A DNA stretch of 53,109 nucleotides from the NCBI GenBank assembly GCA_013116665.1, contig JABFJY010000032.1, positions 1 to 53,109 on the forward strand, written 5' to 3'. Source of the stretch: Corallococcus coralloides. GTDB taxonomy: Bacteria; Myxococcota; Myxococcia; Myxococcales; Myxococcaceae. Position numbers and translations under genes: made by a program. The notes beneath the pieces were generated by a model. That model saw only the letters and a list, made by a program, of their open reading frames with translations, was not told the origin of the DNA and ran no database searches. Below are positions 17,551 to 19,853 of this stretch, piece by piece (position 1 is the stretch's first letter; every line of letters starts with the position of its first letter).

Positions 17551-19652
17551 TGGCCCGCCCGACCGCGCCCGCCGTGAAAACCACCCTCTTCCAGCGCCTG
17601 GGCGGCAAGGCCCCCCTGACGGCCGCCGTGCAGAAGCTCTACGCGCGGGTGATGACGGACGCGCTGCTCAAGCCCTACTTCCGCCGCTTGGACATGCTCC
17701 AGCTACAGCGCCAGATGGTCGCGTTCCTCACCCAGCACCTGGGCGGTCCGGGCGTCTACAAGGGCCCGTCGATGCGCGAAGTGCACGCGCGCATGGAGCT
17801 CGAGCCCCGTCACTTCGGGCGCGTCGCCGAACACCTGGCCACCGTGCTGGATGACCTGGACGTGCCGGGCCCCGTCGCCCGCGAGCTGCTGGCGGCCGTG
17901 GGCTCGTCGCAGGGCGACAGCGTGAGCAGGCCCGTGGCGAAGGCCGCCTCGCGGACCGCCGCCGTGAAGCGTGCTCCGGCGCGTGCCTCCCGGACGGAGG
18001 GACGCCGGGTCGCCGCCGCGTCCGCCCCCGCGGCCCGGTCCTCGCGCCGCCGCGCGCCCACGCCGCTCGAAGGCGCCCTGAGCGAGGCGGTGCTGGACGC
18101 GGCGAGCGTCAACCTGTTCGTCCTGGACGCGGACCTGGCCATCGTCTTCTCGAACGCGTCCTCGTCGGAGGCCATCGAGCGCATCCACCAGGCGTCCGGC
18201 CTGCGCGACGGCGCGGGGGACGCGGGCGGCGACTTCCTCGCCCACTTCGAGCACCAGCTCCGGCTGGAGGAGGAGCGGCTGCTGGAGCCCTCCGCGCTGC
18301 CGCACGAGGCCCACTTCGCGGTGGGCCCCACGCTGATCAAGGCGCGCATCGACGGCATCTCCGGCCGGGGCGGAGCGCTCACCGGCTACGTGGTGACGTG
18401 GACGGACGTCACGGATCAGCAGCGCACGGACACGGAGTTGGCGCGCCTCAGGGCCATGATGGAGAACGCCCCCACCTGCGTGATGGTGGCGGACCTGGAC
18501 CTGAAGATCATCTACCTGAACCCCGCCTCGCGCCGGCTGTTGCAGCGCGTGGAGAAGCACCTGCCCGTCGCCGCGGACCGGGTGCTGGGCTCCCACATCG
18601 ACGTCTTCCACCGGGACGTGGCGTACCAGCGGAAGATCCTGGCCAACGACAAGAACCTGCCGGTGCGCGCGAACATCCCCATTGGCCCGGAGACCGCGGA
18701 CCTGCTGGTGACGGCGGTGTACGACGGCCAGGGCCGCTACCTGGGCCCCATGGTGACGTGGGAGCTGATCACGGACAAGCTCGCCGTGCAGCAGCGCGAG
18801 CAGGAGCTGGACACCACCCTGCGCGGCATCTTCCAGGAGGTGACGCAGCACTCGCAGACGCTCGCCGCGTCGTCGCAGGAGCTGTCCAGCGTCAGCCAGC
18901 AGCTGGTGAGCAACGCGCAGGAGACCGCGGCGCAGGCCACGCAGGTGTCCGCTGGCGCCGAACAGGTCAGCCGCAACGTGCAGAGCGTCGCGTCCGGCAT
19001 GGAGGAGGTCAACGCGAACATCCGCGAGGTGGCGCGCAACGCGAGCACCGCCGCCAAGGTGGCCGCGTCCGCGGTGAAGCTCGCGGACTCCACGTCCAAC
19101 GTCGTCGGCAAGCTGGGGACGAGCAGCCAGGAGATCGGCAAGGTCATCAAGGTCATCACCTCCATCGCGCAGCAGACGAACCTGCTGGCGCTCAACGCGA
19201 CCATCGAGGCGGCGCGCGCCGGTGAGGCGGGCCGGGGCTTCGCGGTGGTGGCCAACGAGGTGAAGGAGCTGGCGCGCGAGACGGCCCGCGCCACGGAGGA
19301 CATCGGCCAGAAGATCGGCACCATCCAGGGCGACACCGAGGAGGTGGTCAACGCCATCCTGGAGATCGGCGCCACCATCAGCCGCATCGACGAGCTGCAG
19401 ACGTCCATCGCCTCCTCCGTCGAGGAGCAGACGGCCACCGCGGGGGAGATCCTCCGCAACGTGGGCGAGGCCGCCAAGGGCAGCCAGCAAATCTCCGAGA
19501 ACATGGCCGCCGTGGCGGAGGCCGCGCGCAGCACCACCGAGGGCGCGGGCAGCACGCAGCGCTCCGCGGTGGAGCTGGCCCACATGGCGCAGTCGCTGCA
19601 ACGGCTGGTCGTGCAGGTGGACACCTCCGACAAGCCGGCGCGGACGAAGTAG
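17550..19652 (+). CDS. Cytoplasmic methyl-accepting chemotaxis protein: N-terminal truncated hemoglobin (group I 2/2 Hb) plus PAS domains plus MCP signalling domain
   Basis: The N-terminal ~120 aa, [24 protein letters not shown]...[26 protein letters not shown], match trHbN. The C-terminus has the highly conserved MCP domain [30 protein letters not shown]. No TM segments. Confidence 0.85.
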
Positions 19653-19853
19653 CGCGGACGGCATCAGGCACAGGGAGCCACGGCACGTGCGGACCGGATT
19701 GAAGCGGTGGTGGGCGCGGGGCCAGGTGGCCCGTGCCTCCACGCAGGCGCGGACGAAGTAGCTCGGGCGGCGTCAGGCACAGGGAGCCACGGCACGTGCG
19801 AACCGGATTGAAGCGGTGGTGGGCGCTGGGCCAGGTGGCCCGTGCCTCCACGC
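19636..19853. repeat. Tandem direct duplication, 2 x 109 bp at ~95% identity, spanning the MCP stop codon and the N-terminal coding region of the downstream kinase
   Basis: ...gcgcggacgaagTAG... recurs at 19650 and 19759. The units have 5 mismatches and no indels. Confidence 0.9.

Follow-up and report, generated by a model that had tools for sequence, protein, structure and literature searches.

A 109-nt tandem duplication across the junction of an MCP gene and an ABC1/UbiB-family kinase gene in several strains of Corallococcus coralloides

The MCP-kinase junction and its tandem array

The window analyzed in this work, i.e. the whole stretch of 53,109 nt (G+C content of 70.4%) from C. coralloides, carries a CheA-to-CheR operon (14771-23650) in which genes encoding an ABC1/UbiB-type kinase and an ABM monooxygenase are located between those of a globin-coupled PAS MCP and of CheB. 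Two head-to-tail 109-nt units that are about 95% identical (19637-19854, + strand) lie across the boundary between the MCP and kinase genes. The features of the operon and of its repeat are the following, gene identities being based on Pfam and the limits of the copies on Tandem Repeats Finder, completed for copy 1 by comparison of the copies:

14771-17065, + strand: CheA
17062-17550, + strand: CheW
17550-19652, + strand: globin-coupled PAS MCP of 700 aa (Bac_globin, PAS and MCPsignal domains), with its TAG stop at 19650-19652
19637-19745, + strand: copy 1 of the unit, including the true MCP tail and stop, a relic 34-nt spacer and a relic kinase start
19673-19677, + strand: relic GGGAG of copy 1, followed by the relic GTG 19687 and 19.7 kinase codons
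19687-19761, + strand: relic ORF of 24 codons, VRTGLKRWWARGQVARASTQARTK, translated from GTG 19687 to the duplicated TAG (19759-19761)
19742-19751, no strand: left arm, CGCAGGCGCG, of a perfect 10-nt inverted repeat, on the junction between copies 1 and 2
19746-19854, + strand: copy 2 of the unit, in which a relic MCP tail and its relic TAG (19759-19761) precede the working spacer and kinase start
19782-19786, + strand: ribosome-binding GGGAG of copy 2, in the working spacer
19796-21325, + strand: ABC1/UbiB-family kinase of 509 aa (ABC1 domain), read from GTG 19796
19851-19860, no strand: right arm, CGCGCCTGCG, of the inverted repeat, at the right end of copy 2 (kinase codons 19-22)
21348-21683, + strand: ABM monooxygenase, NOJ93232.1
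further downstream, + strand: CheB and CheR

The identification by Pfam of an MCP gene followed by an ABC1 kinase gene agrees with the original prediction. The PF03109 ABC1 domain of the kinase reaches 161.7 bits compared to a Pfam cut-off of 22.9, and full-length orthologues of 509 aa share 81-100% identity with this protein. Corallococcus was the only genus in which close orthologues (at least 81% identity) were detected, the next matches (at most 49% identity) originating from metagenomes or MAGs of other phyla. CheA and CheW overlap by 4 nt (17062-17065) and CheW and the MCP by 1 nt (17550), as is typical of translational coupling, whereas a conserved spacer of 34 nt, which has a GGAG of its own, lies between the MCP and kinase genes.

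Tandem Repeats Finder located the array at 19637-19853 (period of 109, 2.0 copies, 95% matches, 0% indels, score of 399), and no other tandem array of the 53,109-nt window reaches a score of 100. Direct comparison of the units revealed 103 matches among 109 positions, one of the six mismatches being the junction base, i.e. the last base of the unit. The copies directly adjoin, without any intervening sequence, and their duplication-specific junction is CCTCCAYGCAGGCGCGG. The unit consists of: (i) 16 nt of the MCP tail including the stop, (ii) the 34-nt spacer with GGGAG and (iii) 59 nt of the kinase gene. Both approaches therefore confirm the predicted 109-nt tandem duplication of the MCP stop, spacer and kinase start, except that the unit had been thought to hold about 30 kinase codons and actually holds 19.7. 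A repeat of such length and identity cannot have a chance origin. Searches using blastn detected no further copy of the unit elsewhere in the window. A mobile element or a dispersed repeat was considered and discarded: the unit occupies a single locus in the window and is built from gene ends that are orthologous across the genus. The coding sequence of the kinase also includes a weak and imperfect 33-nt tandem repeat (20028-20099, about two copies, 80% matches, 11-12% indels), which is probably a coincidence in a G+C-rich coding sequence.

The last four to five codons of the MCP gene and its TAG are included in copy 1 and the protein is unaltered by the duplication, the MCP being likewise called at 700 aa in strains CA049B and DSM 2259 and in their relatives. 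In strain CA054B (locus L023, 306-2414), the MCP called is slightly longer (702 aa), which represents a minor length polymorphism located upstream of the repeat, and its final sense codon is AAA instead of AAG.

Two possible starts, GTG 19733 and GTG 19796, located within or after the junction, had been proposed for the kinase. Since its orthologues have 509 aa and begin at the aligned codon, the alignments indicate that the true start is GTG 19796, within copy 2. The protein read from this codon is 100% identical to protein P0125, i.e. NOJ93231.1 from C. coralloides and WP_147439300.1 from Corallococcus sp. CA049B. All the Corallococcus orthologues have this length, save a few shorter records (420-507 aa) that are partial or result from alternative starts. 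The aligned start codon is GTG, except in RDP092CA and KYC2213 (loci L004 and L008) where it is ATG, and orthologue alignments show a conserved GGAG 9 nt upstream of it. The other candidate, GTG 19733, was rejected: it would add a 21-aa extension, VPPRRRGRSSSGGVRHREPRH, which corresponds to out-of-frame relic sequence and has a counterpart in no orthologue.

Because 109 is equal to 1 modulo 3, the kinase frame of copy 1 reaches the duplicated TAG. The relic ORF thus includes 19 kinase codons, one junction codon and the last four MCP codons followed by TAG, and a Shine-Dalgarno-like GGGAG is retained 9 nt upstream of its GTG. Its translation agrees with the dead-end N-terminal kinase fragment that had been predicted from copy 1. 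The equivalent ORF of DSM 2259, the type strain, encodes VRTGLKQWWELGQVARASMQARTK before its stop.

Presence of the array among Corallococcus strains

A sequence identical to that of the window across the whole array was found in CA049B (contig RAWC01000041.1, locus L010). Both sequences differ at 54 of 9,530 positions (0.57%), and 38 of the 53 coding differences are synonymous; therefore, CA049B is a different strain and not another version of the same assembly. No difference was found in the 2,053 nt surrounding the duplication (18918-20970), while about 12-15 would be expected from 54 differences in 9.5 kb; this segment may be a recently shared recombination tract or result from a sweep. 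The finished genome of DSM 2259 (CP003389.1, locus L019) harbors an array with the same period of 109 and the same junction architecture, and its MCP stop and kinase start are separated by 143 nt instead of 34. Its junction, CCTCCATGCAGGCGCGGACGAAGTAG, differs from that of the window by a single C/T difference, 3 nt before the join, and the flanking genes of the two strains diverge by about 3-5%.

Four further sequencing runs yielded contigs whose ABM proteins are identical and which share a 500-aa kinase fragment, and contig L020 is identical to DSM 2259 along its full length. Contigs L020 to L022 (SRR29904089, SRR29904084 and SRR29904087), whose first 31 nt were read, all begin at the 30-mer GGGAGCTGGGCCAGGTGGCCCGTGCCTCCA, which is present twice in the DSM 2259 locus. 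In Logan contigs, which we take to be built with k=31, the graph would branch at this 30-mer only if both copies are present in the reads, so that these breaks imply the duplication. At a DSM 2259-like locus, the duplication fragments k-mer assemblies at the shared 30-mer. Metagenome contigs were scanned for the duplication-specific junction in an exact and in a degenerate form, and neither scan gave a match.

These data bear on the possibility, raised in the original prediction, of an assembly artefact, i.e. the false expansion of a single-copy region. In favor of such an error, the window belongs to a draft short-read assembly. However, artefactual copies would be identical, whereas the observed ones differ at five to six sites, the array is found in three strains including a finished genome, and the break points of contigs from independent read sets fit with the duplication. 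Furthermore, CA049B was sequenced with 2x250-nt Illumina reads assembled by SPAdes (PMC6306037), and its 250-nt reads exceed the 218 nt of the array. An artefact is thus so improbable that it can be practically discarded, and the duplication is genuine in several C. coralloides strains, including the type strain.

A single copy, i.e. MCP stop, spacer and kinase start with the same flanks, was found at 16 other Corallococcus loci, and the spacer has 34 nt wherever genes were called. This single-copy set includes genome-collection matches L001 to L009, AB011P, two C. exiguus-like strains, AB038B, CA054B and AB045. The array is therefore lacking at 16 of the 19 strain loci examined. Single-copy orthologous loci had been proposed as a sign of an assembly error: many orthologous genomes are indeed single-copy, but the closest ones are duplicated. 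CA049B, CA054B, DSM 2259, AB011P and AB045 belong to one subspecies group (PMC6306037). Since this group holds both single-copy and duplicated strains, the array is polymorphic within C. coralloides. The kinase gene distinguishes three roughly equidistant lineages (window/CA049B, DSM 2259 and CA054B, which are 4.0-4.6% apart), with AB045 and AB011P slightly outside (5.1-5.6%).

The complete genome of another C. coralloides strain, B035 (CP034669.1, locus L017, 6911-7415), lacks about 7.9 kb of the che cluster. The deletion corresponds to positions ~15195-23252 of the window, its flanks are 97-98% identical to the window, and a 117-aa CheR remnant is fused to a CheA fragment. Because of this deletion, the che cluster appears dispensable in at least one strain and its expression is not strongly constrained in every strain.

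Break points and history of the two copies

The ancestral MCP tail carried the same inverted-repeat arm, GCAGGCGCG, which is kept in copy 1 of DSM 2259. Among 52,581 segments of 109 nt taken at random from the window, only 52 possess a perfect 9-nt inverted repeat at both ends. If the MCP tail is AAGCAGGCGCGG, the form found in most species as well as in DSM 2259, 2 nt (GC) are shared at the junction CCAC-GC-AGGCGCGG. The MCP tail of the window now reads AAGCCGG, as in CA054B, AB045 and AB011P, and does not share this GC, whereas an ancestral-type tail, AAGCAGG, would provide the 2 nt; one later substitution or an imported allele must therefore be assumed. Allowing for such a later substitution and for the 2-nt microhomology, the left edge of the array would be placed at 19634. 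Such a microhomology is weak evidence for slippage.

The array could have originated from an illegitimate template switch during replication that copied again the segment ranging from the last MCP codons to kinase codon 20. Since both break points sit on arms of the inverted repeat, a hairpin formed by these 9-10 nt probably helped the slip. From these sequence features, a hairpin-assisted template switch appears to be a reasonable candidate cause of the duplication. The inverted repeat was also considered as a conserved RNA helix that would couple MCP termination to kinase initiation. This candidate was rejected: covariation did not exceed that of shuffled alignments (77/500 and 51/500), and pairing, which reaches 80% across 14 sequences with one compensatory cell, was no better than in shuffled controls.

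Tandem repeats of about 100 bp in Escherichia coli, studied by Lovett and co-workers, are reportedly formed by slippage or template switching at microhomologies, and Trinh and Sinden are said to have described in 1993 the influence of hairpins on such events. A divergence of a few per cent between copies stabilizes these E. coli repeats against deletion. The Corallococcus array resembles them by its head-to-tail organization without spacer, its single-copy relatives, its putative 2-nt microhomology, the potentially hairpin-forming inverted repeat in its vicinity and the divergence of its copies, known to be stabilizing. However, unlike the laboratory events of E. coli, it is a natural polymorphism across strains that are about 3-5% apart; moreover, its microhomology is minimal and its copies show signs of homogenization or of a repeated origin. 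Copy-number variants attributed to ODIRA or template switching (PMC10766183, PMC11790251) also involve short inverted repeats at break points and a proposed template switch, but they are kilobase-sized inverted triplications in eukaryotes, whereas the present case is a direct 109-bp duplication in a bacterium. A search of the literature on inverted-repeat-associated duplications yielded mainly inverted amplifications of eukaryotes, which provide no direct precedent. Overall, such a short tandem duplication, present as a structural polymorphism, is unremarkable as an event and does not represent a new kind of system.

The two copies show five internal differences in the window and six in DSM 2259, and their longest identical runs are 28 nt and 35 nt, respectively. 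The original prediction described the duplication as recent, a view that fits neither with these differences nor with the sharing of the array by strains whose flanking genes diverge to the extent given above. According to our own reading of the alignments of relatives, copy 1 is derived at four of the five differences of the window, all located in its non-functional relic spacer and kinase part, and one of these changes replaces L by R. Outside its relic MCP tail, copy 2 carries one private change, a T at 19763 directly after the relic TAG, and otherwise matches the states of single-copy relatives. This asymmetry (four derived changes compared to one) fits with copy 2 carrying the working start.

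The comparison of the window with DSM 2259 revealed four sites that are the same in both copies of one genome but different between genomes. The first copies of the two genomes differ at 11 sites and the second ones at seven, compared to five to six between copies within a genome, and only the junction site groups the first copies together. Since copies of one genome are closer to each other than to their counterparts in the other, they are younger than the split of the strains. This pattern suggests either concerted evolution, by gene conversion or unequal exchange, or a second origin. Furthermore, two spacer haplotypes, GGACGGCATC and GGGCGGCGTC (window sites 19658/19663 and 19767/19772, locus L019 ~2310-2425), both occur as single-copy alleles in relatives. 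Each haplotype is found once in either duplicated genome, but their order in the window is the reverse of that in DSM 2259. Simple descent does not account for this reversed order, which counts against the explanation that we prefer and would point to recombination with other alleles.

The same 109-bp duplication might have arisen independently in the window/CA049B lineage and in that of DSM 2259, the inverted repeat making these exact break points a hot spot. Two origins would account for the four strain-specific states shared by the copies of each genome and for the lower divergence within genomes than between them. They would also agree with the location of the inverted repeat exactly at both ends, a coincidence found in 0.1% of random segments, and with the position of CA054B, which is single-copy yet as near each duplicated strain as those are to each other, and thus falls among them. 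However, the junction architecture is identical in the two lineages although only 2 nt of microhomology are available, RDP092CA is single-copy despite a perfect 10-nt inverted repeat, and, of the sites at which the copies differ, three are common to both genomes, which is unexpected under independent mutation. In addition, tandem copies are well known to undergo gene conversion, an alternative to a second origin. We therefore consider two origins as rather unlikely, while treating them as a serious rival.

Because the junction architecture is identical and relies on only 2 nt of microhomology, we favor a single origin followed by homogenization as the more probable history. A single origin requires either loss of the array or an unresolved branching order, since CA054B is single-copy among duplicated lineages. 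Most likely, the array would have arisen once in a sub-lineage of C. coralloides and would then have been partially homogenized by gene conversion or unequal exchange, with recombination with other alleles; mismatches between the copies may now stabilize it.

Consequences for the kinase gene and significance

In the duplicated arrangement, neither gene is disrupted: the end of the MCP gene is its original one, and the kinase gene retains its start together with its ribosome-binding site and 34-nt spacer, so that the geometry stop/34 nt with GGAG/start occurs twice in series. Ribosomes may translate the short frame and re-initiate, or may instead initiate at the kinase start itself. Folding of the RNA, compared between the duplicated transcript and a reconstructed single-copy transcript, predicted similar accessibility and pairing of the kinase start with and without copy 1. 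A scan for promoters and terminators detected no promoter-like or terminator-like site in the region, and no Rfam family matched the region at E<=1. Any effect of the duplication on kinase expression, as suggested in the original prediction, would probably be small.

The relic ORF resembles bacterial uORFs and leader peptides, as it is short, is preceded by a Shine-Dalgarno-like sequence and ends 34 nt before the kinase start. However, unlike them, it is a by-product of a duplication, is missing in most relatives, encodes an unconserved peptide and is not associated with an attenuator or a terminator. The relic peptide has undergone non-synonymous changes both in the window (L to R) and in DSM 2259 (R to Q, T to M), whereas the N-terminus of the kinase is conserved. 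Since tandem repeats of this size (about 100 bp) generally disappear rapidly, long persistence of the array could reflect selection, counter to neutrality.

Such selection might maintain the duplication either as a 24-codon uORF or coupling relay that tunes translation of the kinase relative to that of the MCP, or for an activity of the basic 24-aa peptide. The relic GGAG and GTG are intact in all three duplicated genomes, the frame is open in both lineages, the 34-nt distance between stop and start is repeated at both junctions, and the array has lasted long enough to accumulate five to six differences although short tandem repeats are normally unstable. However, survival of a 24-codon frame and of a 7-nt start signal is expected by chance at such a divergence and at 70% G+C, the peptide accepts non-synonymous changes that the kinase N-terminus does not, and the predicted accessibility of the kinase start is unchanged. 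Furthermore, the array is missing from the 16 related loci, including some of the same subspecies group, and no terminator or attenuator structure accompanies it. We consider selection for a uORF or its peptide to be very improbable. More broadly, that the array is anything other than a passive relic, whether a recurrent and reversible inverted-repeat switch or a selected uORF resetting the kinase:MCP translation ratio, seems improbable.

Because of the expected chance survival of the frame, the non-synonymous changes of the relic and the loss of the cluster in B035, we infer that the duplication is near-neutral, neutrality being assumed here. Taken as a whole, the explanation that we prefer, i.e. 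a genuine, inherited and polymorphic duplication that would have originated by template switch, with a single origin, later homogenization and near-neutrality, is in our opinion likely to be correct.

With respect to annotation, this analysis assigns the kinase start to 19796 and accounts for the 143-nt "intergenic" gap present in three C. coralloides genomes, including that of the type strain; a 530-aa protein starting at GTG 19733 should not be called. As regards genome quality, the repeat proves to be genuine rather than introduced by an assembler. In evolutionary terms, the locus offers a small and clear case, observed in nature, of a short tandem duplication that has persisted through strain divergence, with homogenization or repeated origin at hairpin-bounded break points, and is thus of mild interest for research on repeat stability.
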